From Octopus vulgaris (Eukaryota), in contig OX597827.1 of the NCBI GenBank assembly GCA_951406725.2, forward strand, positions 23,870,001-23,934,000: a stretch of DNA of 64,000 nt, read 5' to 3'. The position numbers were made by a program, and so were the translations under genes. Below, one piece after another: positions 15,475-52,702 of the stretch. Position 1 is the stretch's first letter. Each line of letters begins with the position of its first letter. The notes under the pieces are model-generated. The model made no database searches. It saw only the letters and a list, made by a program, of their open reading frames with translations, and was not told the DNA's origin.

Positions 15475-15492
15475 CATATATATATTATATAT

Positions 15493-15793: not shown

Positions 15794-15794
<1 letters not shown>
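15493..15794 (-). mobile_element. SINE family C (tRNA-like head); related copies ~32969-33261 (+), 58632-58900 (+), 9180-9448 (+), 26396-26712 (-), 63640-63943 (-)
   Basis: Head GGAGGCACAATGG.CCAGTGGTTA..GCAG..GGTTTC.ATTCC, tail AAAACAATGCAAAGCGCATTGTGACCAGCGATG in several copies. Confidence 0.82.
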
Positions 15795-15851
<57 letters not shown>

Positions 15852-15855
<4 letters not shown>

Positions 15856-16800: not shown

Positions 16801-16869
16801 ATACATGCATGCATATATATATAAACAAACTTTGAGGCACTGAGTGAATTATATTTTACAGAAAATAGA

Positions 16870-17147
16870 GGAAACATTGAATGCAGAATAGCTGTAAAAA
16901 CAGTTTAGAAGACAGGAAAACTGACCAGCAAGCTGCTATGGAGAATCGAACCTTGTACCTCTCAAATTCTGGCTGAGCTCTTTGTACCATAAAACTGAGC
17001 AACACCTTACAACAGATACTGAAGTTTGAAATGTACAGTGTTTGATTCTCTGTAGCAGCTACAGGCCACTTGTTTCTGTCTTCTAAGGGTATTTATTTAC
17101 CCAACCTTCTAAGCTGTTCTTACAGCTATTCTGCATTTGAGATTTCC
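16870..17147. mobile_element. Fold-back element around a decayed tRNA-like segment
   Basis: AATGCAGAATAGCTGTAA.AACAG.TTAGAAG / CTTCTAAGCTGTTCTTACAGCTATTCTGCATT plus inner GCTGCTA..GAGAATCGAAC / GTTTGATTCTC..TAGCAGC. Confidence 0.6.
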
Positions 17148-17247
17148 AGTAATATATATATATATGTGTGTGTGTGTAACATATGGTATAATTATAAACA
17201 GAGCAAATTTGAACTATTTCTCTGCAGACTGAAAATATGATGAACAA

Positions 17248-17288
17248 CCTTAATCAATTTTTGAACCTGATTGGGTTCTCATCAGAGG
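17248..17288 (-). ncRNA. Decayed hammerhead motif
   Basis: Minus strand: CCT CTGATGA GAACC caatca GGTTC aAAA attgat TA AGG; stems I and II intact, GAAA mutated to AAAA. Confidence 0.55.
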
Positions 17289-17552
17289 CGTCTACATCAT
17301 TCTGACAGTCTCCATATATATATATATATATATATTTATGTGTGTGTGTGTGTGTTTGTCCATGCATACATCCACCGCAGTACAAACTGAAAATTATGTG
17401 CACTACCACCACACACCCACATATACATAAACACATAGATATTTGTTTATAGATCCATACTCATACAAAAATAATATATATACATCTGTATACACATATT
17501 ATAACTTACAAAATATCAGCGAGTGAAAGTATCAATGCTATATCTTTTACAG

Positions 17553-18042
17553 AGGCAGAGTTTCCCGCAGTGCCATCCACAAAAGCCAACACCCCTGGCA
17601 CACTCCTACAGTACAACAGATCTCTCCCGGATCAGCTTCTCAGCATCTGACGTAGAGAACTTGTTGAAAATGCCTCACCCAGTCCGTGCCTGGCCAAGCT
17701 GTAGCCACCTCGCTCCGCAGACGTTCTCACGCACCGTCCGCAGGCGAAGTGACACATTCGACCCAAAACTTCTTCCTGCAGGACAACAGCAGCAGCAGCA
17801 ACAGCAACATCAGCTGTTACTGCAGAGTAACCATGGTAACATTCCTGTTTCAACCTTACCTGGTTGGTCACCTGATAAAACTTCTCTACATCATCTTCAA
17901 CAACAGCAACCAAAATCCCAGATGCTAGCCCCTAATTCTATATTTGTGGCAGCTTCAGATTACAGTCCAGAGTTATTTTCAGCTAGTGGCCACCTCCACC
18001 TTGAGATACCACTCAAGGAAGGTGATGTCATTATTAAAAAAG
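17553..18042 (+). CDS. RIMBP-like exon c (polyQ linker plus N-half of SH3-1)
   Basis: cttttacag|AGGCAG...AAAAAAG|gtcagt; 490 nt, phase 0/1; ends FVAASDYSPELFSASGHLHLEIPLKEGDVIIKK. Confidence 0.85.
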
Positions 18043-18619
18043 GTCAGTTGTTCATTAATTTACTCTTGTGTCTTTCACTGGGAGGCAGGGCACAGCTTAA
18101 ATGATATTTTGTTTGTTTTCAATAGTTCCATTGAGGGGTTGCGTTTGATGTTGATGCAGAATGAAAATGTATTTCCAGAGCTGTGTGTAGAAGTCTCTAT
18201 CAACACTCAGAAACAATTAACAAACTTTATTTACTGCACGAAGGGGTTTCTGTGTTGGTCTTTGACAAAATCTGTCAGCAAAACAATCTATACACAGGGA
18301 GAGACATACTCCTGGAATTTATGACAATTTCACTGGTTTATCAATCTGTGGTTGGCCCATCACAACTGAGAAATAATTGCTCTCTGTTCGTGGCAACAAA
18401 ATTGGCTCTTTTAATTGGGCAAATTTTGTCAAGGAATAGCGGATAAGCCATCCATACCTGGATACAACTCACTCAACAAGAACTCCCTTCTTGAATGGAC
18501 CATGATATCACAAAACTCAATTTAAAAAGGATTTAGATAATCCTATCAGGTGATGCTATTAAGTTAGACATGGCCTGGACCAGTCTTTTGTTGGAACATA
18601 TCTAAGTTTGTATATATAT

Positions 18620-18688
<69 letters not shown>

Positions 18689-18873
18689 GTGTGTGTTGAT
18701 GTTTGTTTTAATGTTCAGTTATAATAAAAACAATTTTACATTAATCTGAAGGGCCGCTCTATTCTTTTGTAGAGTACAAATATATTGTTCTTAAGCAAGA
18801 ATATTATTAACAGTGATTTCAAATTTTACCCAGTTAAGCCAAGCATACATACATTCATACATGTATGTGTATG

Positions 18874-18913
<40 letters not shown>

Positions 18914-19121
18914 TAATGTAGGATAAACATTTTTTTTTCGAAAAAAAAAAATTTTATCAATGGCCAGCATATTAAAAAATACCTTTAAAGGTTAAATTTA
19001 TAAATAACTTATAAAATAAGGGCAAAAGAAAAATTCTAATGCCAAATATGCCGAAAATAGACAAAATTGTCAATAACCATTATCATATATATATACGTGT
19101 ATATAATTTTCTATTGTGCAG

Positions 19122-19252
19122 GACCTGTTGGTGCTAACGGTTATTGTGAAGCTTTAGTGAAAGGTAAAGTTGGCTTGGTACCATATAAATACCTACACCC
19201 AGTCAAACTTGAAACGATGACAGCAGAGGAACAGAGAGCTCTACATTTACAG
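19122..19252 (+). CDS. RIMBP-like exon d (C-half of SH3-1)
   Basis: attgtgcag|GACCTG...TTACAG|gtaagt; 131 nt, phase 1/0; GPVGANGYCEALVKGKVGLVPYKYL contains the SH3 GxVP motif. Confidence 0.88.
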
Positions 19253-19879
19253 GTAAGTCTCACTCAAATAAAACCACAAACACTCCACTCCATCTCTTCT
19301 AAGTCTATCTTGGTCGTGTCTACAGCCTTATAAGATGATACTCCTATAACAAACACTGTGTGAGTTGAGTTTAGGTGTTTAGACAACGGGTGATCCTTCG
19401 ATTACATCTTAGTGGACCGGACAGTAAGTACCAGGGTGGGGATGGAGGGGGGGTGGAGGGGGGGCGGGATTAGCAGCAGAAAGATCTGTTAAAAGTGTAG
19501 AGAAAGATTTTTGCATGCAGCTTTTCAGAGAAAGGTGATTTAAACTAAGGTTCTGAAACAATGGGCTGATGGAAGTGGCTGTTTTCAACACCAGCTTCCA
19601 ACACCACCACAGCCACAACCACCAACCATTACACCACACCACAGTCACCATGACAACTACTACAACAACCCACCCACCATCACCTAACAATCACTGAAGT
19701 GTAACACATCTTTGAATCGACAATCGTATCACAATCACTTAGTTCTCACTTCATAGTCTGATAAGATTTACCTTAATTTCGCTTTAATTTCTCAGGACTT
19801 TCAGTCAACAGAGATGCCTTCGGCATGATGAGAGACCATTTGCCCAACAGTTACTTCAAATAAGTACTCAAATCTCATA

Positions 19880-20125
19880 CGATGGTCAACCAATGTCATA
19901 TGGCTGTCACATGACGGTCAGCCAACAGTCAACGAAACATCACACATGTCACCCAACCTTTATACATCTGTCACTCAAATGTCACCCATCTGTCACTCGA
20001 CAGTCATTCAGATAACCTTCAACTGTCCTACTACAGTCTCCTAACAATTGCCCAACTATTTCATATTCACAGTCAACAGTTTCCCAAACAACCACCGAAA
20101 TGTCACATAGGTGTCAACTAGCTGC
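19880..20125. repeat. Degenerate intronic minisatellite
   Basis: Recurring (CA/TG)GTCA(C/A)CCAA units. Confidence 0.55.
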
Positions 20126-20243
20126 TGTGCCCCTCTGACCCAACAACCACAAACCCCGACATCGCCCTCACTTGATGTTTTAATATTCACGTTTGTCCAT
20201 TTACTGATTCCATGATTGAATGCCTTCTTTTTTGTATTTCCAG

Positions 20244-20328
20244 TTCCGTGGTGACACAACAGAAACAAATACAGAACACATAAGACCACCCTCAGAAGTG
20301 GCATCTTATTTTCAAAAAGCCCACCTAA
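20244..20328 (+). CDS. RIMBP-like exon e (linker)
   Basis: tttgtatttccag|TTCCGT...CACCTAA|gtgagt; 85 nt, phase 0/1, supplies the phase change needed between exons d and f; FRGDTTETNTEHIRPPSEVASYFQKAHL. Confidence 0.72.
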
Positions 20329-20996
20329 GTGAGTTCTGTTTTGCTCTCTTTCAACCAGTAATTGCATTCTGATGCACTATTGTGCATGATATTGCTCCTT
20401 CACTGCACAGCAATGCACTATGACACAAAATAATGCATCATGGAAAAGCATGGCTGTGTGGTAAGAAGCTTGCTTCCCAACCACAGGGTTTTGGGTTCAG
20501 TCCCACTGTGTGACACCTTGAGCAAGTGTCTTCTATTATAGCCTCGAGCCAACTGAAGCCCTGTGAGTGATATATATGGCCTTCTACAATGGCCTTGGAC
20601 TGACCAAAGCCTTGTGATTGGATTTGGTAGATGGAAACTGAAAGAAGCCCATTTAATATATGTATATGGAGCCTGGTGCAGCTGCTGGCTTTCCAGACCT
20701 CAGTCAAATCGCCCAACCCATGCCATCATGGAAAACGATGATGACATTAAACAATGATGATGTGTGTGTGTGTGTGTGTCTCCGTTTGTCTTCCACAACT
20801 TGGCAGTTCAGCAAAAGAAACCGAATAAGTACCAGGGATTGATTTATTTGACTAAAAACTCTTCAAGGCAGTGCCCCAGCAGCATGGGCACAGTCTGAAG
20901 ACTGAAACAAGTAAAAGATGCAAAAAATAAAATATACATCCCTCCCTGTGGTTTATATTAATGTTTTTTTGTTTTTACTACTGTTTTTGTTTACAG

Positions 20997-21188
20997 CATC
21001 CATTCCAAACCTAACTGGTAACCAATATCTCCCGCCCGAACACGGCAGATGGAACAACAGTGTCAGTAGTACTCCGCCACATACTGCTGTTTCCGCTGCT
21101 ACCACCACATCCCCAACTTCACAGTTTGTGAAGAGACACAGTGGTGGCGGCGGCGGCGGTGGACATATCTCGCACACTCCTATTAAAG
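20997..21188 (+). CDS. RIMBP-like exon f (S/T/P and polyG linker)
   Basis: ttgtttacag|CATCC...ATTAAAG|gtgagt; 192 nt, phase 1/1. Confidence 0.8.
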
Positions 21189-21252
21189 GTGAGTATCATT
21201 TGCAAGGAGAGTGGCATGCCTTGATTATTACAGCTGGCTATCTTTCACACAT

Positions 21253-21309
<57 letters not shown>

Positions 21310-22158
21310 CATTAGGCACATATATTCAATAAGAATATTATGTACTGAATTTATATTGAGTGCTCCATTGTATCAAAGTATTAATACTATTAAAGTATTT
21401 ATATATTTAATACGAGTGATATATACATATATAAGATGCTTAAATAATTAATTCAAAACTTTTAAACTATCAAATTTATTTTATACATTATATTTATATT
21501 TTTATATTTATTTATATATATTTTTAATACAATAAGGTCTTTCACATGGGTATATCTTTATGATGAGTTTGGATATTAATTTCCTTATATTAATAATAAT
21601 AATATATTATTAAAATATATATATATATATTTGCATATTGTATTTGTAATTTTTTACTTATATCTCTTTATCTTTTTACTTTTACTATTACTGTATATCT
21701 CATTTCATTTTATATATTGCCTTTACTCCTATGTAATGGTGTATTAAAGTATGGATTGAGTATCATCGGATAGTTGATGTTTTATTGATTTAAATATGTT
21801 TCTCCATTCTCTAATTTTGTAGTATATATATATATATATATTTATCTATCTATCTAACCCTCTCTCTATCTTTCTTTTTCTCTTTGTCACTCTCTCTCTT
21901 TCTCTCTCCTCTCCTTCTCACTCTCTTTCCCTTATGTTTCTCCTCTTCTTTTCTGTCTCTCCTCTGTCTCTCCTTTCTTTCTGCCTCTCTCTCCTCTCTC
22001 ACTCCCTCTCTCTTCCTCCCTCTCCTATTCCACGTGTTTGAATATGATATTTCCACAGAAAATGGAAGAAAAGATCATTCTGCTTTCCTGTATTCTACAG
22101 CTGAAAGTCATGTAGCCACCTTTCACTTCTCTCTCTCTCCTTCTCATTGCACACCCAG

Positions 22159-22289
22159 GATTGCCTGAAGCACCGTCCACCTTCCGTCTCGAAAGAATAG
22201 TTGGAGATAACAGTGTTCTTCTAAGTTGGCACCCACCAATGATGGATGAGCTTGACCAGAATAATGGTATGCAGCTAATTGGCTACCGG
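22159..22289 (+). CDS. RIMBP-like exon g (N-half of FN3)
   Basis: acacccag|GATTG...TACCGG|gtaagt; 131 nt, phase 1/0; LPEAPSTFRLERIVGDNSVLLSWHPP...NGMQLIGYR has the FN3 SW.PP and GY motifs. Not in the ORF track. Confidence 0.88.
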
Positions 22290-22412
22290 GTAAGTGGATG
22301 CTGGTGTTAAATATCTATCTATGGGTGTGTGTTGACAGATAAACATACATACACTAAATAATGCTATTGTCTGTTGTTGAGCTTAGACTATATATATATA
22401 CATATATATATA

Positions 22413-22453
<41 letters not shown>

Positions 22454-22472
22454 ATATATATATGTGTGTGTG

Positions 22473-22624
22473 TGCAGGAATGGTTATGTGGTAAGTAGCT
22501 TGCTTACCAACCACATTGTTCCAGGTTCAGTCCCACTGCATGGTACCTTGGGCAAGTGTCTTCTTCAGGCTGACCAAAGCCTTGTGAGTGGATTTGGTAG
22601 ACTGGAGCTTGAAGAAGCCCATCG

Positions 22625-22680
<56 letters not shown>

Positions 22681-22898
22681 TGTGTGTGTGTATGTTGGTC
22701 CCCCCACACACACACACACACACATCGCTTGACAACTGATGCTGCTGTGTTTATATCCCTGTAACTTAGTGGTTCGGCAAAAGAGACCAATAGAATAAGT
22801 GCTAGGCTTACAAAGAATGAGTCCTGGGGTCGATTTGTTCGACTAAAGACAGTGCTCCAGCATGGCCGCAGTCAAATGACTGAAACCAGTAAAAGAGT
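22473..22898 (+). mobile_element. SINE family B (tRNA-like head, internal microsatellite); copies ~20445-20917, 24070-24225 (-), 51372-52040
   Basis: A/B-box-like TGG.T.TGTGGTAAG and GGTTCAGTCCC, then ACCTTGGGCAAGTGTCTT, tail CCAGCATGGCCGCAGTC..ATGACTGAAAC.AGTAAAAGAG. Confidence 0.85.
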
Positions 22899-23319
22899 AT
22901 ATATATATGTGTGTGTAATATTTTGGACTAATGAGTATAAATTAATTAGTGTGCTGATGTGTTGAGTAAAGCACTGTCACAGTTTGGGGCTACCTGGTGT
23001 CATTTCATGTATATTTCCTTTGGATCTAATCCATATGCACAGACTTGTTAGTAACCATTGCTCCAAATAACCAACCATTATTATTATTGTCATTATTATT
23101 ATGATATATATATATAAAGGTGGCAAGCTGGCAGAATCGTTAGCACACTGGTCGAAATGCTTAACAGTATTTCATCTGCTGCTCTGTTCTGAGTTCAAAT
23201 CTTGCCAAGGTCAACTTTGCCTTTCTTCCTTTCAGGGTTCATAGATTAAGTACCAGTGAAATAGCTGCCCTTGTGGCAAAATTTGAAATCATTATTATTA
23301 TTATTATTATATTTATATA

Positions 23320-23703
23320 TCTCTCTCTATATAAACGGCAGTTTGTCTGTGTGTGTTTCTGTGTGTCTGTTTGGTTGTACCCTCACCCTGACCACGGCTT
23401 TCAACCGATTCTGATGAAACTTGACACACACATAGCCCAATGTCATAATTGAAAACTAACGCAGCGAAAATTTTGAAAAGTTCCCCCAGTTCTGAAAAAG
23501 ATCGATAAATTCGACATGGGATCGACAATCAGAAACACAAACCACAGATGGTCTAGGGGACGCAACTCGACCATTTTAACTATCAAAAAAAATTTACCAT
23601 CATTTTTTTCCCCATTTTTTTGCTATTTTTTGGCTATAACTCTCTAAAAATGCTTTATAGTTATTTTCCTTACAAACCCGAGCAACGCCGGGCGATACTG
23701 CTA

Positions 23704-23704
<1 letters not shown>
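23320..23704 (+). mobile_element. Non-autonomous Helitron
   Basis: 5' TC(TC)nTATATAAA, 3' hairpin CCCGAGCAACGCCGGG ~9 nt before terminal CTAG, A|T insertion context. Confidence 0.85.
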
Positions 23705-23744
<40 letters not shown>

Positions 23745-23774
23745 CATACATATATATATTATATATATATATAT

Positions 23775-23980
23775 AAAGTTAATCCAAACATGAAAACACT
23801 AAGAGAAAACACAACAACGCGAGGACGTGGAACAAGTATAGTATTATTGGACGCTCAGGAAGGAAGGGAAGAAGGAGGATTTACCGTTTCGAGCGGAGCT
23901 CTTCGTCAGAAACATAGGAAAAGGAAAGATCCAGTGAAGGGAAGACGGAGGAAAAAAAATCGCCAATGGTACACACGCGG

Positions 23981-23982
<2 letters not shown>
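23775..23982 (-). mobile_element. Short Penelope-type pLTR relic with degenerate hammerhead (23878-23913)
   Basis: Minus strand: GTTT CTGACGA A GAGC tcc GCTC GAAA cgg TA AATC; element lies between two (TA)n tracts. Confidence 0.55.
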
Positions 23983-24022
<40 letters not shown>

Positions 24023-24223
24023 CTCTCTCTTTCGGAGAGGCACTGAGCAGCTATACGCACACATACACACACGGCAGTAACTTCCACCTACCGAATTCAA
24101 TCACAAAGCTCCGGTCGGCTCGGGGCTATAGTGGAAGACACCTACCCAAAGTGCCACGCAGTGGGACTGAACCTGAAACCATGTAGCTAGGAAGCAAGCT
24201 CCCTAACCACACAGCCGTGCCCG

Positions 24224-24261
<38 letters not shown>

Positions 24262-24982
24262 GAGTCTGAGAAACTCCAGCTGGAAGGATAAGACAAGGGA
24301 GATAAATATTGCACTTACTACATGCTACTGTGGGGTGGTCTGCTAGAAATAACAGCTGAGTCTTCTTCATACTCTATTCTCTCCTTAAAAAGGAAGAACA
24401 CATTGGATGACATAGCCCTTGATATACAAAGCTGTGGGGATGGTCATGGATGGAATGCCTTTGATCCTAGATTTACGGGATCAATGCTGATATGTTCTGT
24501 TCATATACAACATTTTTTTTAGGGAGGAGGTTATGATATAATTGTTAGTTTTAATCAACCATCATTAAGCAGACATGTGATTGGAAATATTCCAATCATG
24601 AGCATCCCATCTTTTTCGGGAGATTCGACTGCTATTTCTAGCATCTAACATAGAGACTCTCTCGTTGGCTCACATCTTGGTTGTTTGTTGTTTAGCCCCA
24701 GGTCAGTACTCTTTGAGCAGACCTATGAAGTTGTCTACAATTTGTTACTGATGCAGTATTTCTAGGACTACCTTATCTCATGTGTCCTTCATGTTTTTGA
24801 CAACAGTGTTATTTGAGAGAGATTTGGCTGCTATTGTTAGCAGTTCAAGTAATTACTTACATGCTTCCTCATTGGCTTGCATCTTGATTAATATTTTAGA
24901 TGAGAATTCATCTCTTCAAGAACCATAAATTAAATTAATTGAAGCAAATGACAAACATAAACCAAAACATCTTCCTTTGTAT

Positions 24983-25163
24983 TTAACTCTTTAGCATTTA
25001 AACCGGCCCAGACATCATTTTTATTTTATGCTCTCACATCTGTCCTACTGTGTCATTCTGAAAATAAGCAATCACATCATCAAAATAAAGTATAATTAAT
25101 TCAAAATGATGTGAATAAATAAGGATTACATTTGAGAGAAAAATCTGAATGCTGAAGGGTTAA
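24983..25163. mobile_element. TTAA MITE copy in opposite orientation, 40 nt upstream of exon h acceptor
   Basis: TTAACTCTTTAGCATT ... AATGCTGAAGGGTTAA. Confidence 0.75.
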
Positions 25164-25203
25164 AATACCTTTTCACTGTTTATTTGTTTGTTAATCTCTC
25201 CAG

Positions 25204-25464
25204 ATATTCCTGAATGGTCGGCTGTGCCAACAACCGGGAAGTGCACACCTTGCTAAAGCTGTGGTGGAGAACCTAGATCTGTCTCGTCCACAGTACTTTG
25301 CCATCCAGTCTGTTGCTGCCAATGGTCAGATGTCACCCTCAGCAGAGGTTGTCTTTGAAGGTTTGGAGCGATGGCTCGATGCCGGCGATAAAAGCACTGA
25401 GTCGGACACAGATCTTTCAGAGATCCTTCCTAGTCCCCTTGGTAATTCAGGACCACAGAGAACG
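25204..25464 (+). CDS. RIMBP-like exon h (C-half of FN3 plus linker)
   Basis: aatctctccag|ATATTC...AGAACG|gtaagt; 261 nt, phase 0/0; IFLNG...KAVVENLDLSRPQYFAIQSVAANGQMSPSA. Confidence 0.88.
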
Positions 25465-26813
25465 GTAAGTTCTAGTTTTTGTTCTGTTGTTTTAATTATG
25501 TTATTATGTTAGCGGAGAGGGGTGCAGATGGTAACTTGCTGCCCCAAACATCATATAAATTGACCCCCCTTTATTTTGTATTTAAGTCATTTTGTATTGA
25601 GATTTATTTCTGCCTTTCATCAAGAAAATGACAAGGGTATGGGTTGTGATATTCATTCCTTGCTGAATGGCATTTACAAGTGTAGCCCAGTGGTTAAGAG
25701 GTTTGCTTCCCAATCATGAGATCTTTGGTTCAATCTCACTTAGTAACATCTTAGAGTAATGTCTTTTTAGCTTTTGGCCAGCGTAAACCTTTTCAGAGAA
25801 ATTAAGTAGATGGAAACTTTGTGGAAGCCCTTACCGTGTCACCTAATTTTGTGTGAGAATTATATTAAGAATTGACATATCTGTGGAATATTCAGCTCTG
25901 TCTACACCTTAATTTAATAAGTCAATTGATCATCATTAAAACTCACAGGTAAATCTCATTAAGAGGGAAAGTGGTAGAGTTACAGACTTGTTAGAACCTG
26001 GCTGCAAGAGAATTCACCTGGTGCTTCCTATCTTATTACTGGAAATGTGAGGTATACTTTATGGCAACATGTTTTTGCCACCACTGTAAGGTAAAGTCTT
26101 AATTATCACTATGGTGGGAGGTTTTAGCCATTACTGATGTAGTTTTGACCATCACTACAATGTACAGTTTCAGCCATCACTGTGAGGTGTAGTGTTACAT
26201 GAATAAATGTATTTTCTCTGAGCTGCTGGTTTTGATTCTTATTACAATCTCATCAGGGATCACTAACCCACTTCATTTGTTCATCAAGAAACTTATTACT
26301 TATTATTATGTATTAGGACTTCACTAAAGTGGATAGTCCAATTTGCATGACAGTAGTTTGACTTACCGACATGAGTAATTAATTATCATCAAGAACTCCG
26401 TCAGTTATGATGACAAGTGTTTCTGTTGATCTAATCAATAGAGCAACCTGCCCATGAAATTAAGGTGCAAGTGGCTTAGTACTCCACAGACACGTGTACC
26501 CTTAATGTAGTTCTCAAGGAAATTCAGCATGACATAGAATGTGACAAGGTTGGCCCCTTTTGAAATTCAGGTACAGCTCATTTTTATTAGGTGAGGGGAC
26601 TGAAGCAACATGAAATAAAATGTCTTGCTCAAGGACACAACATACCACCAGGAATTGAACTCATGACCTCATGATTATGAACCGAGTACCCTGACCACTA
26701 AGCCACATGTCTTCACCAATTGTCATCTATCATCATCTCTCATACAATACTTACAGTGCAATCCACCCAAACACCCTGAATGTCAGTAAGTGCAGTTGTA
26801 CTTTTAATTTCAG

Positions 26814-26948
26814 TTTGTTGCAATCTATGACTACAACCCATCAGTGCAGTCTCCACATGACTACGCAGAATCTGAATTACGGTTTAATGCAGGTGACCTT
26901 ATCACAGTCTTTGGGAACCAGAGGTCAGATGGATTTTTCTGGGCTGAG
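26814..26948 (+). CDS. RIMBP-like exon i (SH3-2)
   Basis: ttttaatttcag|TTTGTT...GCTGAG|gtaact; 135 nt; FVAIYDYNPSVQSPHDYAESELRFNAGDLITVFGNQRSDGFFWAE, with the long RT loop and DGF motif typical of RIMBP SH3 domains. Confidence 0.92.
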
Positions 26949-27155
26949 GTAACTAGAAATTATTATCTTACCTCTTTGCCTTCATGTCTAAGTGTGTGTG
27001 TAAGTGTGTATTGTAAATAAATATATATTATATGTATGTAAATATATATATATATGTATTTACCTACAATTATGTATAAGTATCTCTTTGTGTGTGTGCG
27101 TACAAACATGTACACATATGGGCATGTACTTCATCAAAAATTCTCTATCTTTCAG

Positions 27156-27230
27156 TTAAATGGTAACCAAGGGCTTGTCCCTGCAAGTTTTGTGGAAGAA
27201 GTTCCAACAAAAGGTTCTCGGTCAAAACCA
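27156..27230 (+). CDS. RIMBP-like exon j (end of SH3-2)
   Basis: tatctttcag|TTAAAT...AAACCA|gtaagt; 75 nt; LNGNQGLVPASFVEEV. Confidence 0.9.
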
Positions 27231-27773
27231 GTAAGTTTCACAATCCGCTTTTTAAGATTGTTTTTCTTGCCTCTCCGTCCACTCTACAGCAGCAGCCCCT
27301 GACCGTTTATCACATCATGGTGGGCGGAGCATGATTCACACAGCAAAACACTATAAAGTACATGATTTATAATTTAATTATTACAGACATAATACAGGAT
27401 GTATTACATATGTGATGCACATATAATGCAGAAACACCCTGCAGATGGTGAGGGTCAAGAAAATAAGACTAAAATTTTTTAATTTATTCTTTTTGTGTAG
27501 TCTGGTGCCAAATGGTCCATACCCAGTTGGCTGGGAACCCTTTCACTTTAGGATCTATTGTTCCTTCTATCGTCCATTCTACAACCTGTTGTTCTTTTCA
27601 CTGTCTATTTACCTTTCATTCCTTCAAATTTGATGAATGACACAGCAGACTGACTTACCAGAATTCTGCTGGACTATACTAAATGTTAACTTCTTACGAC
27701 CTTGTTCCAATGCCAAAAGACATCATCTTCACCATTTCTCTTTATTGTTTATTATTAGTATCATTATTACTAA

Positions 27774-28415
27774 GGCGGCAAGCTGGCAGAAACGTTTGCA
27801 CGCCGGGCAAAATGCTTAGTGGTATTTCGTCTGCCGCTTTGTTCTACATTCAAATTCCGCCAAGGTCGACTTTGCCTTTCATCCTTTCAGGGTCAATTAA
27901 ATAAGTACCAGTTACACACTGGGGTCGATATAATCGACTTAATCCGTTTGTCTGTCCTTGTTTGTCCTCTCTGTCTTTAGCCCCTTGTGGGTAGTAAAAA
28001 AATAGGTATTTCTTCAATTGCTACGTTCTGAGTTCAAATTCTGCCAAGGTCAACTTTGCCTTTCATCCTTTTGGGGGTTGATAACTTAAGTACCAGTTGC
28101 ATACTGGGTCAATCTAATCGACTGGCCCTCTCCCCACCCCCCAAATTCCAGGCCTTGTGCCTATAGTAGAAAGGATTATCATCATTACTACGAAGATGAC
28201 AAGCTGGCAGAATCATTAACACGCTGGACAAAATGCTTAGTGGTATTTCTCTCTCATCGCTACATTCTGAATTCAAATTCCGCCGAGGTACACTTTGCCT
28301 TTTAATCTCTCTGAGATCAATAAAATATAAAACGCCTGTCAAGTACTGGGAGTCGGTGATATTTATTAGTGGCCCCTCCCCTCAAAATTATATCTTTAGC
28401 CCTCTGTCAGAAACC
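27774..28415 (+). mobile_element. SINE family A cluster in the last intron
   Basis: Well-preserved GGCGGCAAGCTGGCAGAAACG... copy plus two tandem copies. Confidence 0.88.
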
Positions 28416-28462
28416 GTTGTTGTTGTTGTTATTATTATTGTTGTTGTCATTTTGCTTTTCAG

Positions 28463-28531
28463 GTGAGTCGCCAGAACAGCAACGCCTCCCAGAAATCCCT
28501 ACAGAACACAGTTGGTCGAACAAGTAGGTGA
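28463..28531 (+). CDS. RIMBP-like probable terminal coding exon
   Basis: tttgcttttcag|GTGAGT...; VSRQNSNASQKSLQNTVGRTSR*, stop TGA 28529-28531. Confidence 0.7.
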   Translation: MSRQNSNASQKSLQNTVGRTSR

Positions 28532-29266
28532 TGTGATGTGTGGCTTACCACACCTGTCTTAATGAGGTGGTGGGGGAAAAGGGTGGATGGGTGGGTGGAA
28601 ATAAATAAGCAATAATAATAATAGTAATAATAATAGTAATTATTGTTAGTGCCAAATCTGTGTAAGATACATCTCATATATATAATAGTATATTTATTAT
28701 ATCCATATGTTTATATATATATATAATAGTATATAATATATATATGTATTATATATTTATATATAATATATATATATATATATGTATTATATATATTATA
28801 TATTTATATATAATATATATTATATGTTTATGTTTCTATATATATATACATATTAGAGTTTGTTCCAGAAAACCCCACTTTGTGTTAATTGACTGCTGCA
28901 TCTGATGGTTGATCACAATGGCTGTGGGGAGGGGTGGGTGGGATGGAGAAGGAATCTGGAGGTGGGGGGGACTGGTGGTGAGAGCTCGATGTTCTCTCCT
29001 TCACAGCCCTCACTTTATGTTAATTTCTCTGTTACTTCATAACTGGCTATTATTGTGTCTAGCTAGCCACACACACACACACACACACACACTAGACTTG
29101 TATTATTAAGTATTTGTCACAATACAATGAATGCCATGCGTTTGTGAAAGACTTTGCTTAGCGCCACAAATGCCATCCATGGACTTTGGTTATGATTCCT
29201 GCCGCTTGTCACATTTGTATTTCATATCATGAAAAACTGGAGTTAAGGACAAATTTCTATTCTAAT

Positions 29267-29272
29267 AATAAA
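29267..29272 (+). promoter_or_regulatory. Candidate polyadenylation signal of the RIMBP-like gene
   Basis: AATAAA ~740 nt after the stop; AATAAA is frequent in this AT-rich DNA. Confidence 0.3.
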
Positions 29273-30243
29273 GTTTAACCAAATTACTAAAATACTTCTG
29301 TGTGTACTTAAATTATTAAACTGGACATTTATTGCTCATAAACGTGTGTGTGTGTGTGTGTGTAAAACTAAATTCCTGTAAATGGATTGGATGGGGGGGG
29401 GGCTCTTAGGTCTTCTGCCATTTGCAGAATATGTTCTGTACAGTTTGTTGCTAATGCCATAAACTCTTTTAATAACTTTTATTACAACAACAAATGCAGT
29501 AAATTTTATTGTTGAAAATTTTGAAATGGAAAATTTAAAAAAAAAAAAAAATACAATTTTCTTAAAAGTATTTCAAGAAAATTCTGTTTTGTAGAATTTA
29601 CCAATATTTGTAGAATTTTCATAAACCTGTAAAGTTTACTAACATTTGCAAAGTTTCTGTTTATTTCTGGATTTTTAAATCCATTTCATATAGTTGACAT
29701 AATTTTGTAGTATTTATGCATTGGCAGGTATATGAAATATATATATACACAATCTCTGATATTTAATCAATGACTAGACCATGGTTTGTGTGTAGTATGA
29801 AGGATCACCTGGCTAGAGAGCTGGGTAGGATCTCGATCGAATATTGATCATTTCTACATATTTTAGATAGTAGATGGTGAATTTGGATGTAATTGATGTG
29901 CATGTGAGTGTGTGTGGGTACATGCGTAGTTCCATATGTATGTACACACACACGCACACACTCAATGCAGCGGGTGTGGAGGTTATCTTACTAAGCAGTT
30001 ATAACTATTTCATTTACATGGTTGCCCTCTGCATTGCTGATACATACACACACATATATATATATACACACACACACACACATACATATTTACATATATG
30101 TATGTATGTATGTTTGTGTATATATATATATTTGGCATGACAAATTATGCCATGAGATTATACATATTGGTATGGTGTATAATACCACCTTATTTAATAT
30201 GTATAGCTTTACAGGAATAATTCTAATATCCGGTGTACCCATA

Positions 30244-30275
<32 letters not shown>

Positions 30276-30402
30276 GCATCCCCCCCACACACACAAATAT
30301 ATGCAGAAATATATCCATATAATCTAATAACCATTGTTCAAAGACAACATTTTATAAAAAAATGTTTAATCCTTAAAAAAATAAACCATGCAAATACAGT
30401 AT

Positions 30403-30451
<49 letters not shown>

Positions 30452-31031
30452 TTATATGTATATATATGTGTGTATATATAAACAACATATATATGTATAT
30501 ATATATATAAATGATATATATATATAGATATATATGATATCATATATTGCTTATATTTTTATAAGTAAAACAATAAATTATTCTCTAAAAAAAACAATAA
30601 TCATAATATTAAATATCAAAAATATATATATAAAATAAAGCAAAAATATTTTTAAAAAGCACATGCATGAGGAAGAAAGTTTCACATTGAAATGGTGGAA
30701 ATGTTTTTTGTTTTTTTTTTTTGTGGATTTCATAGTTTTAAAGTTTCCTCTTATAAACTGATTGGGGAAACAAAAAAACTTACAAAAATTAAACAAAAAA
30801 ATATATAAACATTTGCCTGAAATACTCTTTGTACAATAATAATAATAATAACGATGAGGATGATGATTATGATGATGATATGTTCACATAAATTCTAAAG
30901 AAGTATATCAACTTGGTAGTGTTGGTGTTTGTAGAGCAAAGATGTTTTGGGGGGTGAGGAAGAGGGGGGTGGGGTTGAGTAGAATAAAGTATATTGTCAC
31001 CCAGGTGTGAAGTGCAAAGTTATATACATAC

Positions 31032-31100
<69 letters not shown>

Positions 31101-31486
31101 GCTTGGTGGCAATGATGACTAGGTATTATTGTTACCAAGTCCTCTCCACCCAGAGTCGACACTTCTCACCTGTAAGATAGATCTATCTCTAAGTGCCATC
31201 ACCTTGATGTGCCACTTATAGTCAGCAATGACTGAGGTACTGCAAACAATAAGTACTCTTGTACACCCACCCCCATCTACCCCCTACTATACTGCTGGGT
31301 TTTTTTTTTTTTTGTTTTGTTTGGTTTCCTTTTTTTTGCTTGGTTTTCTGTTGTATTTAACAGTTTTGCATTTAATTTGAAAATTACTGCTTGAAATCAT
31401 ACACATATATACATACCATTACACTGCCATACACACATATCCACACCTTTATATACTGAAGCACACACACACACACACACATATAC

Positions 31487-31519
<33 letters not shown>

Positions 31520-33918
31520 TTATTACACTGCCACATACCCATATACATCCTCACTGTTATACATACAAACACTTTTGCTCCCAGCAACATACATTTGCAT
31601 ACTCACACATACTTACAAACTCTCCTGCATACACAAGGCAGAGATTCAACCGGAAGCTACCCAAATTCTTAACATTGGCATTGAGTTCTTAGAGATGCCA
31701 TTTTGGATTTACTTTCTTTTGGCTGATTTTTATTATCAAGGAAACCATCAACAAACATTATGATTCTTCGATGCCTTATCTACCTCTTACATATACTCTT
31801 TTGGTTTGTGTATATGGTCAACGTTCACCACAGATACACACACACACACACACACACACACAGAAGTGAGCATAGGTGGGGCAACTGGGCAGAATCTAAC
31901 AAGTATCAGCCTGCCGTCTTTACCTTCTCGGAATTTTTGACCTGTGGAAGGTAGAGCGGGATGCGAATACAAAAGAGGTGTATTGTGGAAGCCCGTCTGC
32001 AGCCATTGTTATGGAACACCTAGAAAACCGTGTTTGGTGTCGAAGAATGCCCCTTTACTTTTGGGTTAACATGTATTTAGCATTGCTTCCCATGTGGTGA
32101 GAGACTGCCTTGCTATGGTAAGGGAAGTCTCTCCTTTCTTGACAACCGTTGAGTTCCTTGGCAACTGGCGAGTCTCTCATAGTTTTGAATTTCTTGCCTA
32201 TTGCCAAGTCTCTCAACTACAGTCAAGTCTCTCGGCAAATCTGAGTAAATGTCAGATGCATAAAAAAAAAAGAAAGAAAATTTTGAAATTCGTGACCAAC
32301 GATGCAGCTCTTACGTGATAACCCGAAGTCATTCTTCACATAGCACACATATATATTGAAACACACATACACCTGCATGTGATATCGCTGTTTTGTCTGT
32401 ATGTCTGTATATGTAGTGACAACCACACTTACACACATGCTCATTTGGAAACAGAAGACGAATGAGAGAGAGAGAATGCTATGGGTGTATGTATGTGCCT
32501 GAGCCACTTCGCTGTTAACTACTGAAGCCTCACTGAGACCCGGTCATATCCTCTCTCACTGAGGGGTCACGTGTTGTCAGAGAATGCTCACGTCCAGCAC
32601 TTCAACAATTCCATCCTGATCGCAGACTAGAGGACGGATGCAATGGTAGAAGTCACTGCTCTTGTTGCCTCATCAAAATTCTCCAAATATGTCTTCCAAC
32701 TCACGGACACACAGACACACCCCTTTACACATACATACTTATACAGGTCTTTGACAGAAAGCAATAACAAAACCCAATGTTTGATTGTAAAACCTGCTGT
32801 GCCGTCCGTCCATCGTCCGAAACATGAACAGGTCTCAGTTCAGTGTCCTGATCTCAAGGCCTCTGCATCAACACCACTCCTCTTACATAATATACACTGT
32901 TAACTTCAGCCTTTAACTTTTTTTTATTCCATCTTTAGACATACATCCAAATATCCAAGGCAGCGTGTGAAGGCACGTTGCCTGGTGGTTAGGATGTTTC
33001 ACCCATGATCGTAAGATCATGGCTTCAATTCCTAGACCAGGCGACGCGTTGTGTTCTTGAGCAAAACACTTCATTTCACGTTGCTCCAGTCCACTCAGCT
33101 GTAACTGGGTCACCCTGTGGCGGAATAGCCTTCCAATCAGGGGCAATGTTGACCTGCTCGCCTAGGCAGTGGGACGACATAATTCGAAAGCTAAAACAAT
33201 GCAAAGCGCATTGTGACCAGCGATGAATAACAACGTCTGATAGCCTGGTCGATACTGTGATACCATGATTATATATATACATCTATATATAGCTACCAAT
33301 AGTGTAAGGAACTCTGGGAAAACATTATATGCTCAGGTTGGAAGTGGTAAAAATGCTTTTGTATTTTGTTTTGCAAAATATCTTTCAGGAATTAACCCCA
33401 TTAATAGATTGTTTGTTATGGGTTTATATGTTAAGAACAGTTAAAAAGCCATGAGGGGTTTTATGACTTCAGTGCCTCGCTCTCTTTTCTGAGCTCAGTT
33501 GCCACCCCTGGCACTGCTAGATAAAGCTGTGTTCTCAAATGATACCCACCCATAATACCATCACCACCCTCGCAGACCAATGAAATAATGTTTTAGCAGC
33601 GTTAATGGAGGTTAAACTATTATTTCTTTCCTTCTCTTTAGAAAAATGAAATTTCAATAAATGCAAAGGTTGTGTTCCTGAGAAATTAAGTAAATTTCTG
33701 TTTAAGAATTAAATATAACAAAAATATTCTAATGACAGGAAAATCTTGTCAGCTCATTGTTGTATCTGAATTTCTGATCATGGTTTAGCAACTCATTACA
33801 TTTTCACAGTATCCAGTGACCATCCCACCGACTTGGTTGAACTTTACTACTACTACTACTACTACTGCTACTACTACTACTACTACTACACCACATTATA
33901 TTGTTAGATGTCTTGTTA

Positions 33919-34667
33919 ACTGTGGTTTGTGTGGTTGTTCTCTCATAAATCTCCTGGACCGCACATCAAAATACAATGAGAGGAAGCCCCTCACTGGCCA
34001 CTGTTTCATGTTCTAACCAACATGATGTGAGTTGAGTCTTTGCTTCTGTAGACTGTTTCACTGGATACGCTGCCCTGTGTCAATTTGCCAGGGTAATTCA
34101 CTTTCCGCATCAAAGATGTGTGAATAGCTGTTAGAAAATGACTGAGACACCACCAAGAGGTTTACCAGTGTTTACTTCAAGACTGAAATTATTTCTTTTT
34201 TTTACCATTCTTCCTGTCTTTTGATTCTTCTGGAGTTGAGAGGGACTCCACTGTTATTTACTGTGATCTGTCAAGCGATCCTCTTTCCTGGACCGCTCAA
34301 CATCAAATATACAGGGGATCAAGCTTTACAGCCTGTAGTAGGTCACAGGGATTATAACTCTTCACTCCAAAAGCAAATTCAAGTTGTTGTTGTTGTTGTG
34401 CTAAGCTATGTAAAGTTGGATGGTGAAAATAAGTTCCTGGTATGTCAAGACAAGGAGTGGTTTTGACAGCCAGTTGCAGCTATTTCACCCCACTAACACA
34501 GCCGATGCCCACTTCATCATCACTTGTTCTCTAAATGCTCAACAAAGATATTAAGTTGGCTAGAGGTAGTAACTGTTCATACACCCATGGGTAATAACAG
34601 GGGAACTTTCTCAGTTACCTGGACCGACTTTTAACATCATATACTGGTTAAGTACTTCAGCTATTAC
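33919..34667 (+). ncRNA. Three copies of a putative structured RNA module (loop CCTGGACCG-N1-7-ACATCA-W-rich-TAC)
   Basis: Exact 9-mer at 33953, 34287 and 34618, each followed by ACATCA and enclosed by a stem of different sequence; G-U pairs favour the + strand. Confidence 0.45.
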
Positions 34668-34861
34668 TCACAAACATTTCATGTGTTCTTAAGCAAATCT
34701 TTTAATATCTTTTTCCTGGGGCAATGTCATCAATTTTTGGAATACTTATTGCTTACCTACACAATGAAATAGTGACAGTTATTATATGATAAACAATATC
34801 TATATGCACCTCTCGTTTAGTCTTACTTTCCCATGTTTAATTAAACATCCTTAATTGTAAG

Positions 34862-35097
34862 GATGGTTACAGATATATATCTGGTTACAGATATAAATTA
34901 CACTGGTTACATTTATCCACTTGTTATAAACTATACTGGTTTTAGGTATAAAATTATATTTAAAACACTAATTAAAAACATTACTGATTACCAATTGTTT
35001 TTGTTTTGGTGGTTCAGTCTCAAACTAGTTATAAATGCGATTATAAGCCACACCAGTGGTTACAATAATATTAGGTTTATATACCACTGGTTATAAA
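34862..35097. repeat. Degenerate short tandem repeat
   Basis: Recurring TAC.CTGGTTA.A units. Confidence 0.55.
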
Positions 35098-36238
35098 TAA
35101 GTCAATATGTCTAGTTAAACAGCTAACCTGATAGAAATAAGATTCACATGTTAGGTAACTAGCAGAACCTGTAAAGGTTCTGGGTATCTTTTCTTTCATT
35201 AAATGAATTAGAAAAGATCATCTCTGATAAATAATAATAATAATATATATTTTAAATAATTAATATTTTATAATATTTACTTAAATACTCAATGACTGTT
35301 TTAGTTATAAATATCTCTATTAAGAATTTTCTAATCTTAATAATTAAGGAATCCTAAGAGTTAAGGAATTATAAAGTTTTTTTGCAAAGTCTTTAGGGTG
35401 AAAGATATTCAATCACTCAGGAATTCATTTGAAGAAGACTTCCAGTCTTAATTTGAAAATACTTTTTGGTTTGTGGTGGTGCCAGGGTTTACCTCTGGAT
35501 TTGCTTTGGTGAAATACTGAATCTATTCAAGGAACACTGCTATCGGTATTGAAGTGTTAATTTAGCCTGTATTTAGTTGTATGGTTTAAACAATGGACCT
35601 AACGATGGATTAGTCCTAACACATTCATCGTGTTTGTTTGATCCAACTTTGGGTGGAACTGTTGTTATGTCAGTTGTAATATGACTCAGCATTTCTGCTG
35701 CAGCTTGGTCGTACAGTCAGTCAAGCTGAATGTTAACGTGTGAGCCATCTCAGCATGTATAGTTTAAAAATAGACATAGATCTTTGTTGATAGAAAATGG
35801 GGTTTTGTTCAGGGAGGCAGGGTACAGAAATATTTCTGGGATATTCAGATCAGGGGTCAGAATCACAGAAGGAGACAGATGTATAAAACTTTCTTTTTTT
35901 TTGTGAGAGGAGTGGTTAATCTTTACGTTTTTCACCCGCTGATGGATTGTTTTTGATATTTTGAAATAATTTTCACAATTTACAGACTTTTCTTCCTCAT
36001 TTTTGATTTTAGGGGATCGAAGGGTCAGTAATCTCTTCATTTTTGTTTTATTTTTCGTTTTTTTTTTTGTCTGTAAAAAAAAATTTTGTTTTATATTTTC
36101 AAACTTTCCACTCCAAGTTGACTTCTATTTTCATGTCTTTCATAACATATTCTGACCAAATTCATACCTAAACAATTGTGTGTGCATGTGCGAGAAAGAC
36201 AGCATTTTCTATAAAATATAATTCTAAATTAAAACTAC

Positions 36239-36278
<40 letters not shown>

Positions 36279-37208
36279 ATTTATCACATCCACCAAACTC
36301 TCCTACTACTTATAATAATGTTTTCATACTAACACACCCTTTCTTGCACTCTTGAATATTACTAAATATACTATTTGTATATATATATATATATGTAGAT
36401 AGGTAGATATATGTATACACACATTTCTACACCCATGGTTCAATATCCGTCAGAGAATATCACATTTCTTTCTTTCAAATCGTTATGTTTACATACATAT
36501 ATATAAATATATCTGTTAATATTGATTTACAAAAATGCCTCAAATGTGTGTGTATGTTATATATATATATATATATTATATAACATATATGTACATATAT
36601 GTATATACACATATGCACACGCACTCTGTCGTAGATGTAGAAGTATAAAACGCGATTGAGTTCTTTTTCATTGAAACAACTTTATTGTTCACGTTATTTT
36701 CAGTCTACAAACATGGTAGCAACAAATTTGACTCTCCTTATTATTTAATATATATACACACACTATTCGTGCTGAATAAATATAACGTTATCTTACATTT
36801 GAAATATTCACCATATACAGTGTATAGACACTCATTAACATACATGTATACATATGTGTGTATATATCATATATATGTATCTGTTGTGAGTGAAACGCTA
36901 TAGTTGTATCATGTATGATATGAAGATAGTTCACATAAAACTAAGATATCAAACTGTAATATTTACTTTTCAACAACGTCTGGGAAATATTAATGCATGT
37001 GGTTAGTAAAATGTAAATTTAAAATATAAACGTTAGTTGTTGTAGGTGTATTATGAAACACTAATTGTACAGAAGTCAATACTTTTAAGGGGTGTTTTTT
37101 AATTCCCTTTGGAGTGAAAGAAGCACCTTTAACCAATATTTCTCTTGTACAGCACTCCAATTGCTGTGAGCAATCTATTGTTTGTGAGTTGTCATATCTA
37201 GAAAGCCA

Positions 37209-45359: not shown

Positions 45360-47558
45360 TATGTGCAGTAGTATTATAGTTGGCTGCTACAAAGGTAAAG
45401 GTGATGCCTTAGATAGAAACCACTCCAGGGGTATCAAACTACTGGACCAGGTCATGAAAGTTACCAAGAGAGTTATAGCTCTCAACTGATTAGAAATAGA
45501 ATTAAACTAGATGAGATGCAGTTTGGTTTTGTACCTGGGAAGAGTACCACTGATGCCATCTTTCTAGTGAGGCAGTTTCAGGAAGAGTTTTTGGCCATTG
45601 TACTTAGCTTTGCATTTAGCTTTCATTGAGCTGGAGAAAGCTTTCAACAGAGTCTCATGTTCTGTTATCTGGTGGTCTCTAAGGAAGCTAGGTGTAGAGG
45701 AGTAGCTTGTTAGAGCTGTACAAGCCATTTACACAGGTGTTATCAGTAAGGTGAGAGGAGTCGGTCATGGATACAGTGATGAATTGAGCTTACAGGTAGG
45801 GGTTCACCAGGGCTCAGTTCTCAGTTCACTCCTATTCATTATAGTCCTCCAGGCCATAACAGAGGAATTCAAAACTGGATGCCCATGGGAACTATTATAC
45901 ACTGATGACCTCACTCTTATTGCAGAATCTGTAATGGAATTGGAGAAGAAATTCTAGGTGTGGAAGCAAAATCCAGAATCAAAGGGCTTTAAAATTAACC
46001 AAGCTAAAACCAAAGTCGTTGTTAGCAAGAGAGCAGATAAGACTCCATTTCTGTCAAACAAATGGCACTTGCTCAATTCATAGGAAAGGAAGTAATTCCA
46101 TTTGCTGCACCAAATGTAAGCTATGGACACACAAGAGATGCAGTGGAATCACAGGTAGATTAACAGATAAAGTTGTCTTTGTATGTGGCAGATGTGAAGG
46201 AACAATAATCACTAAGAGCACATGGAGGAGATTATACTCTGTCAAATGCCCAGGAGGCTCTCTTCATGGAGTAGATAGTTTCTGTTGCCTAGGTGACCAG
46301 ATTAGCAATTATGATGGATGCTCTGAAAGTATTGTTTCTAGAATACAAACAGGCTGGAGAAAGTTGAGAGAGCTCCTACCTGTGTTGGTGACAAAAGGAC
46401 AAAAGGTAGATTGTATGATGCTTGAGTACAAATGTACTCCATGTCCTCTGAATGCAGCGGACATGCATAGACTGGAGAGGAATGAAAGCAGTTTGCTCCA
46501 CTGGATGTGCAGCATCAATGTGCATGAACGACAAAGCACAAATGTATTGAGAGAAAAGTTGAGCACAAGAGGATCAAATGCAGGAGAGAAGACTACGTTG
46601 ATTTGGACATGTGGATGAAGACAGCTGTATAAAGAAGTGGTGGTCATTGGAAGTAGATGGCACTTGTGGAAGAGGGAGATCGAGGACGATGTGGGATGAA
46701 GTGGTGAGGACCAATCTCAGGATGTTGAGGCTCACGGAGGAAATGACAATGGACTGAGGTGTCTGGCAATATGAGGTTCTGGAGAATACCCACCCACATC
46801 AGTGAAACTGGGTTCTGGAAGCATTGTGTTCCACCCACACAAAACAATAAAATTTTCACACCCAAACAAACTCGACCCCCCCTTCTCTGCCAAGTTGTTT
46901 CTCTTCTTCATACACTTTGGTTATTTTCCACCCTTGAATCCAGTCTTCCCTACCCTGCTGCTCATTGGGTTTGTTGCATCCCCTCCCCCTCTGTACCCAG
47001 ATTCTCACCAGTCACAGCATTCTTCACCCCCACTCCCTACTCATTGGCAATATCCTACCAGTACCTACCACCATTCATTCCATTCTTCCTTATTCTACCA
47101 TCCCATCTATGCTCTGACCCCTGTTCCTTGTGAGTATACCTCAGCACTTACTGCCATCCTGCTCCTGCTGTCTCCTACTCTCTCTCTCTCTCTATTTCCC
47201 TTGCTCTTCTCTAAAACAACAAATCTGTTCCTGTCCTAATTCTTGATCACTCTCTCTCTCCCTCCCTCATCCTTTTGCCTCTGGCTAAGTAACCATGTCC
47301 CTCCTCTTCAGCAACACTCCTCTTTCTTGTTCACTCCTCCTGTCTCTGGAGGTAACCATGTCCCTCCTATTCAGCAGCACAACTGATCTGCCCTCATTCT
47401 TGTTGACACTTGCTCTCTTCCCCTTCCTCTCCCTCTCTTCCCCTCTCTCTCTTCCCCTCCCTCTCTTCCTCTCCCTCTCTTCCCCTCCCACTCTTCCTCT
47501 CCCTCTCTACCTCTTTCTCACTGGGTAACCATGTAACTCTTCTGTAGCAAGAGATCTG

Positions 47559-52257: not shown

Positions 52258-52702
52258 AGAAGAGGATGGAACATGTGGAAGAGGGAGACCCAAGAAGACA
52301 TGGGACAAAGTACTGAAGGATGACCTCTGGACGCTCAAACTTTCAGATGAGATGACAAAGGCCCAAAATACCTGGCACTTTGCTGTACTCAAGCAGACCT
52401 GTACTTCATAGCCGAAGTGTTAAGGCCACTCCCCGCCCCCTGGTGAAGAGAATTGGTCTGCAAGAGTCATGTGCCAGTGCCACGTAAATAACTCATGCTG
52501 GTACCACATAAAAGGCACTTGTGCCAGTGCTATGTAAAAGCATCCACTACACTCTTGGAGTGGTTGGTGTTAGGAAGGGCATCCAGCTATAGAAACCTTG
52601 CCAAATCAGATTGGAGCCAAGTGTAGCTCTCAAGCTCGTCAGCTCTGGTCAAACCATCTGACCCATACCAGAATGGAAAATGGATGATGATGATGATGAT
52701 GA
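52258..52702 (+). mobile_element. RTE LINE 3' end
   Basis: DGTCGRGRPKKTWDKVLKDDL followed by family tail ending in (GAT)n. Confidence 0.85.

Follow-up and report, generated by a model that had tools for sequence, protein, structure and literature searches.

What does a short word mean when it is repeated three times, at nearly equal intervals, in a stretch of non-coding DNA where nothing else is repeated with it? The window analysed here, a 64,000-nt stretch of the Octopus vulgaris genome, raises this question: each copy of the word sits in a potential hairpin with a different stem. We therefore asked whether the three copies make up a selected RNA element and, if so, what might read it. Our analysis suggests that the element is real and probably under selection, with a new motif placed on an old design, and we treat it as a well-supported candidate at a single locus. 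To our knowledge, few structured cis-elements have been described in the UTRs and lncRNAs of animals. The literature we searched yielded none in cephalopod UTRs or lncRNAs, and no description of this loop motif or of its locus was found in the literature on the motif, on cephalopod RIMBP and on cephalopod structured RNA. The cephalopod lineage is noted, in an excerpt of PMC9699675, for its long 3' UTRs and for its expansion of miRNAs. Three copies of a loop with 18 invariant bases would offer a sharp, testable handle on post-transcriptional control in these animals.

A bipartite motif clustered at one locus

The original prediction described a 9-mer, CCTGGACCG, occurring three times and followed by ACATCA, by A/T bases and by TAC. 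Exact matches were found to the entire pattern, all on the plus strand and spaced by 334 and 331 nt (Table 1). The distance from the 9-mer to ACATCA is 1, 4 and 7 nt in the successive copies, and 3, 4 and 2 A/T bases separate the latter from TAC. We searched the positions 28500 to 37000 for a fourth, degenerate copy with at most three mismatches in total and found none. The clustering is not expected from local composition: in 1000 dinucleotide shuffles of 33300-36200, no bipartite motif of any 9-mer and 6-mer occurred three times. Across the genome we counted 10 matches to the exact pattern, three of which are the cluster and seven of which are isolated, against 13 matches for a reversed control. 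Hence, the motif does not form a dispersed family, and it is only its clustering that is unusual.

Table 1. Positions in the window of the loop motifs, the enclosing hairpins and the features of the candidate host transcript.
Feature	Positions	Strand	Basis or remark
RIMBP-like gene (SH3, Ig_RIMBP2 domain, SH3), last exon with stop codon	28464..28531	+	candidate module host
Minimum contig span, three probable RNA runs	33860..36067	not given by contigs	lengths and offsets
Module 1, interrupted hairpin (predicted) of 25 bp with 4 G-U, 29-nt loop 33947-33975	33918..34005	+	folding
Loop motif 1, CCTGGACCG-N1-ACATCA-W3-TAC	33953..33974	+	pattern match
Module 2, interrupted hairpin (predicted) of 28 bp with 4 G-U, 28-nt loop 34285-34312	34251..34348	+	folding
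Loop motif 2, CCTGGACCG-N4-ACATCA-W4-TAC	34287..34312	+	pattern match
Module 3, weaker hairpin (predicted) of 23 bp with 4 G-U, 27-nt loop 34616-34642	34588..34670	+	folding
Loop motif 3, CCTGGACCG-N7-ACATCA-W2-TAC	34618..34644	+	pattern match
First AATAAA beyond the modules, candidate poly(A) signal	36775..36780	+	inferred

Three of the eight CpGs in 33900-35000 lie inside the motif, in a stretch that is CpG-poor (observed/expected ratio of 0.19-0.25), and their retention suggests, from base composition, that the motif may be under purifying selection. No significant likeness was seen among the spacers or among the flanks: the spacers between modules gave z-scores between -1.4 and +0.6 in all 10 local comparisons, and one pair reached z = 2.3 in a global one. 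Plus-strand ORFs starting with ATG are at most 44 aa long in 33900-34700; a stop-free frame of 106 codons (34146-34463) has neither an ATG nor a Pfam match. The claim that the spacers are mutually unrelated is borne out, and there is no coding signal. We rejected a coding role for the motif: inner spacers of 1, 4 and 7 nt preserve the frame, yet there is no ATG ORF or Pfam match in support.

Predicted hairpins enclose the motif

We analysed the strength of the enclosing stems as the duplex formed between the two flanks of each motif, using 35 nt on either side. On the plus strand the predicted flank duplexes reach -28.7, -26.5 and -16.2 kcal/mol for modules 1, 2 and 3. Of the 10,291 window positions outside microsatellites, 17, 25 and 734, respectively, reach these values, which places modules 1 and 2 each in the best 0.2% and module 3 in the best 7%. 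The minus strand gives weaker duplexes for all three modules (-20.7, -19.1 and -13.3 kcal/mol), and the twelve G-U pairs of the plus strand become A-C mismatches there. This agrees with the earlier suggestion, based on the G-U pairs, that the RNA is read from the plus strand. The size of the loop remains constant, within 2 nt, despite the differences in the inner spacer.

The proposal of three hairpins with differing stems stands for modules 1 and 2, which have strong predicted stems and unrelated arms, but less well for module 3, whose stem is weak and can be refolded. In the latter the outer stem with a GTAGTA arm, as originally drawn, gives way to a collinear one between 34588-34596 and 34662-34670. 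The folding of whole modules relative to shuffled sequences is modest, with z-scores of -1.83, -2.41 and +0.04 for modules 1, 2 and 3. Within a context of 136 nt, the fold of module 3 in which 34552-34563 forms a helix with the motif (-27.1) is predicted to be favoured by 4.2 kcal/mol over the one that leaves the motif open (-22.9), i.e. the motif would tend to be buried. A rival predicted fold also pairs the motif of module 2 in a context of 101 nt, and the minus strand of this module has a folding z-score of -3.57. Taken together, the folding predictions support a plus-strand RNA element in which the three modules present an invariant loop on unrelated stems.

The alternative folds could have a function of their own. 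An upstream segment would pair with the motif and the variable spacer, compete with the long stem and so regulate access to the loop. Such a segment can be drawn in all three modules (-13.6, -15.9 and -14.1 kcal/mol), and the resulting structure is the minimum free energy (MFE) fold for module 3 and the rival fold for module 2. Yet each of these helices is unremarkable alone, since 5.8-11.1% of background windows reach it, and the pattern was noticed post hoc. We consider a switch of this kind highly improbable.

The cluster may also lack any role as RNA, being either a non-functional relic of a decayed triplication or a DNA-level element of three composite transcription-factor sites, with stems that arose by chance. 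The near-equal spacing does suggest duplication, hairpins devoid of the motif are present in the region as well, and the function of the modules is putative. However, under neutral decay 18 bases, a CpG among them, would not stay exact as all remaining similarity was lost, and a DNA-level site would not be expected to show two stems in the best 0.2% together with a G-U polarity. In our view, this makes either version very unlikely.

Copies elsewhere and repeat origin

The segment 33895-35230 is single-copy in the genome. The motif matches outside the cluster lack comparable structures: the flank duplexes range from -9.8 to -18.8 kcal/mol in the seven isolated exact matches and from -4.5 to -15.4 kcal/mol in 13 looser non-self matches. 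Hence a strong enclosing stem is absent from all 20 of these chance matches, none being better than -18.8 kcal/mol. Six of the 13 looser matches correspond to a single LINE family, in which endonuclease codons resemble the motif, and a seventh lies in a related LINE. The endonuclease stretch of this family (copies L191, L193, L198, L199, L203 and L205) shares about 19 of 22 bases with the loop of module 1, a likeness that we judge to be coincidental. In principle, antisense small RNAs from the family could pair with the loops.

A repeat origin was also evaluated with sequence profiles. The profile built from seven SINE copies gave only matches with E of at least 0.21, all outside the loops, and the profile of the LINE endonuclease, also from seven copies, gave no match. 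We rejected both origins. Two of the isolated motif matches do sit within SINE-like copies. With both profiles negative and the spacers unrelated to each other, the modules match neither a decayed transposable element nor a uniformly diverged tandem repeat, an origin that the original prediction had raised as a counter-explanation. In metagenomes, 119 stretches matched; the 80 that were listed had a single match each, and none of these resembled the window beyond the motif.

Upstream gene and candidate host transcript

The three modules lie 5.4-6.1 kb past the stop codon of a RIMBP-like gene, on the same plus strand, in a genome of 2.8 Gb. The protein encoded by this gene matches the Pfam domains SH3 (E = 0.0077) and Ig_RIMBP2 (E = 1.5e-5), both below the curated cut-offs. 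Among 116 candidates we identified one homologue, P0002, with 79% identity over the query exon. Its alignment covers the exons from 14562 on, and P0002 ends with the peptide of the last exon in Table 1, so that the stop codon at 28529-28531 is a conserved gene end. The Pfam matches and the homologue confirm the earlier assignment of the gene as RIMBP-like and of its end at 28531. In the gene (14562-28531, plus strand) and in P0002 there appear to be two SH3 domains plus a single Ig/FN3-like one, which is fewer than in canonical RIMBP.

There are two candidates for the host RNA. One is the RIMBP-like mRNA, in whose distal 3' UTR the modules would then lie, and the other is a lncRNA of its own. 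Seven plus-strand AATAAA signals occur between the stop codon and the modules, and the next one is the candidate poly(A) signal of Table 1. We noted by eye acceptor-like AG sites with pyrimidine tracts at 32938, 33388 and 33641 on the plus strand. These sites would allow a separate spliced RNA as the host of the modules as well. Joining the one at 33641 in phase 0 to the gene's donor at 27232 would produce an alternative gene end of 15 codons. No convincing converging host gene was found in the 66 of 150 frames that were scanned downstream of 28500, which gave just LINE fragments and one weak synaptobrevin match. The latter (Pfam, E = 0.006) is at 52590-52868 on the minus strand, and LINE fragments with RT/PHD similarity are at 45706-46615 on the plus strand. 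A SINE copy with a tRNA-like head, recognised by eye, occupies 32946-33260 (plus strand), just 5' of the structured region.

Probable expression

We used 92 words sampled from the sequence to find sequencing runs that contain it. Among the 24 runs listed, 20 hold 99-100% of the words, and these come from eight studies. All 92 words are present in 15 of them, from four studies, which we guessed to be RNA and none of which is recorded as RNA. Four runs were then tested for cover. Three of them, chosen because they contain the sequence best, cover 33895-34760 at word depths between 102 and 1816, free of joints and indels, while the fourth (X24, from another organism) does not cover it and carries no evidential weight. 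Two runs show zero letter differences from the stretch, which is no test of constraint because the runs had been selected for containing it. DNA sequencing of a 2.8-Gb genome would not be expected to give contig sets of 32-110 Mb at a depth of 102-1816x, from which we infer an abundant unspliced RNA.

The stretch with the modules is thus probably carried in abundant unspliced RNA, and the transcription of the region that had been anticipated is probable, given that three runs guessed to be RNA, of the four tested, cover it at 102-1816x. A cluster of excised small RNAs looks unlikely because the contigs pass through the modules continuously, unspliced and without joints.

Comparison with known RNA families

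We searched the whole window with Rfam and found nothing at gathering score. A search of 33700-34900 at E <= 10 returned only matches with E of at least 0.49, located outside the loops or below threshold. The modules were therefore not assigned to any known RNA family, in line with the first assessment of the sequence. Several families were rejected individually. For the hammerhead, HDV-like, twister, pistol and hatchet ribozymes, neither of these two Rfam searches gave a match. SECIS elements have a core made of an AUGA/GA quartet and an apical AA; the modules have no AUGA on their 5' arms and no SECIS match in Rfam. SnoRNAs are usually encoded in introns and carry either boxes C and D or the hairpin-H-hairpin-ACA arrangement. 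A cluster of either class was dismissed given Rfam matches with E of at least 0.49 only, no consistent D box and no splice joints in 33895-34760. We also rejected the iron-responsive element (IRE), because the loops have 27-29 nt, contain no CAGUG and have no IRE match in Rfam.

The IREs nevertheless provide a comparison at the level of organisation. The 3' UTR of the TfR1 mRNA carries an array of five IREs and, as far as the array is described in an excerpt of PMC4112806, the octopus modules are like it in having several hairpins in one non-coding stretch, an invariant loop and interrupted stems. In contrast, the IREs of TfR1 present a CAGUGH hexaloop above a C bulge, whereas the octopus loop spans 27-29 nt, consists of two blocks around a spacer of variable length and sits on predicted stems of 23-28 bp. 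Structured lncRNA repeats offer a second comparison. The A-repeat of Xist is a structured repeat domain of a lncRNA, and such domains share with the modules repeated hairpins that have been proposed as multivalent protein scaffolds. Unlike the A-repeat, the octopus stretch has only three units, some 330 nt apart and devoid of homology between stems.

A third comparison is with pri-miRNAs, since the modules could be substrates of Microprocessor, i.e. three unrelated pri-miRNA or UTR-cleavage hairpins with a shared, regulated terminal loop. Pri-miRNAs with conserved terminal loops, as well as loop-miRs, are reportedly known, and their long stems and large conserved loops resemble the modules. 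The arms of 28-36 nt, the loops of 27-29 nt and a spacing like that of miRNA clusters are consistent with this reading. Yet the arms of the predicted octopus hairpins are mutually unrelated, which led us to reject a miRNA precursor defined by arm conservation, and no Rfam miRNA matches at threshold. The stems also have large internal loops, and module 3 is unstable. Furthermore, an excerpt of PMC9699675 reports no two novel octopus miRNA families that co-occur on one scaffold. We assign this reading a low probability.

Alternatively, each module could be an independently folded functional domain, such as an aptamer or a self-cleaving ribozyme, in which the invariant loop forms a tertiary core and which is present three times in a lncRNA or UTR. 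The invariant core, the freely varying stem and linker and the conserved loop size are what one would expect in this case; a short conserved helix of UGG with UCA could form, as folding predicts for module 1, and the modules have no Rfam match. However, we found no conserved pseudoknot or kissing partner: duplexes between loops reach only -5.5 to -7.3 kcal/mol, and the downstream pairings are not shared. The contigs are unbroken across the modules, which argues against self-cleavage to the extent that contigs, which cannot show RNA ends, can do so. Such a domain seems improbable to us. In a broader form, the modules would be the first members of a new class among animal RNA domains, consisting of a long hairpin with a large bipartite loop present three times in one abundant cephalopod transcript and acting as a folded ligand-sensing or catalytic core or as a structured trap that destroys a small RNA. 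We regard this as unlikely. If the ligand were a small RNA or a metabolite, the modules would be a rare invertebrate trigger of miRNA decay or an animal aptamer, respectively.

A small RNA or a protein as possible partner of the loops

The loops may be sites for a small RNA, acting as a sponge or as a trigger of target-directed miRNA degradation (TDMD) and held open by the stems. In the register that we propose, ACAUCA is the seed match, CCUGGACCG provides the 3' pairing and the spacer of 1-7 nt is the central bulge. TDMD triggers, as described in an excerpt of PMC10899785, combine a seed with an unpaired centre and with 3' pairing over 6 bp or more. The geometry of the loop would fit this architecture in a register that depends on the cognate miRNA, and the loops are like the triggers of that excerpt in having two invariant blocks around a short variable spacer. 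The exact conservation of 9 + 6 bases, the variability of the spacer, the exposure of the predicted loops and the probable high expression fit it too. There is a similar likeness to multi-site lncRNAs of miRNA decay, which shares repeated accessible sites and a non-coding stretch that is probably abundant.

The octopus loops differ from TDMD triggers in being presented in long hairpin loops, in their weak class of seed and in that no cognate miRNA was found. The seed site would be just a 6-mer or a 7mer-A1, and the target spacer of module 1 has 1 nt, whereas validated triggers are quoted at 3-11 nt. The reverse complement of the bivalve miR-1990-5p, as given in an excerpt of PMC11067994, resembles module 1 by eye, with about 17 of the 22 positions in agreement, but the likeness breaks the seed. 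An octopus mir-1990 hairpin was not found among the matches folded, which were all three of one search and 30 of the 113 of another. More generally, there was no hairpin resembling a pre-miRNA among seven non-self exact complements of the motif, 17 wobble-tolerant complements with GTA, 11 further wobble complements and six more; precursors were called by eye from MFE folds, and the genome searches for complements give lower bounds. The CpG that is retained points to a Watson-Crick partner, and the search for exact complements should have shown one. Hence, among the genomic matches folded there was no gene for a miRNA pairing with both blocks, as membership of the TDMD class would require, and within the window no best duplex was common to the three loops. 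We find it rather unlikely that a small RNA is the partner. A short stretch like the loop motif is also seen in a novel miRNA precursor of two bivalve species (rows Cni-novel-2 and Mga-novel-5 in the excerpt of PMC11067994), probably by chance.

A genomic hairpin for such a small RNA was looked for and not seen among the matches folded, which moves the weight from an RNA partner to a protein. The explanation that we tentatively prefer, at somewhat less than an even chance, is that the modules form a multivalent cis-element through which a sequence-specific RNA-binding protein would control how stable the host RNA is, how it is translated or where it is localised. The spacing of the modules is compatible with an old tandem triplication of a unit of about 332 nt. 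Spacers and stems would then have diverged past recognition, while selection would have maintained the pairing, the size of the loop and its 9 + 6 + 3 bases. Stems of free sequence would serve to hold the bipartite loop open for the protein, and a protein with two domains could read both blocks, the 9-mer and ACAUCA, with a flexible linker in between. The presence of three sites may provide avidity, as it would in the five-IRE array of TfR1.

Some observations count against a protein. The evidence comes from one locus in one genome, and module 3, with its folding z-score of +0.04, is predicted from its sequence to bury the motif. Most RNA-binding proteins read fewer than fifteen invariant bases, and fifteen such bases look like base-pairing.

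Other features of the stretch

Hairpins are not restricted to the modules. Others lie in the spacers between them on the plus strand, at 34000-34130 (z of -2.5 to -2.8) and at 34400-34505 (z of -2.8 to -3.9), and hence the whole stretch is rich in structure. A run of adjacent hairpins at 35120-35240 on the same strand, within the probable transcript, has a z-score of -4.7, going up to -6.0, and does not include the loop motif. Finally, words containing TGGTT occur seven times in 34643-35093 on the plus strand, among which TGGTTACA and CTGGTTA are found four times each. They are in part the result of local tandem duplication and are possibly a second repeated site.
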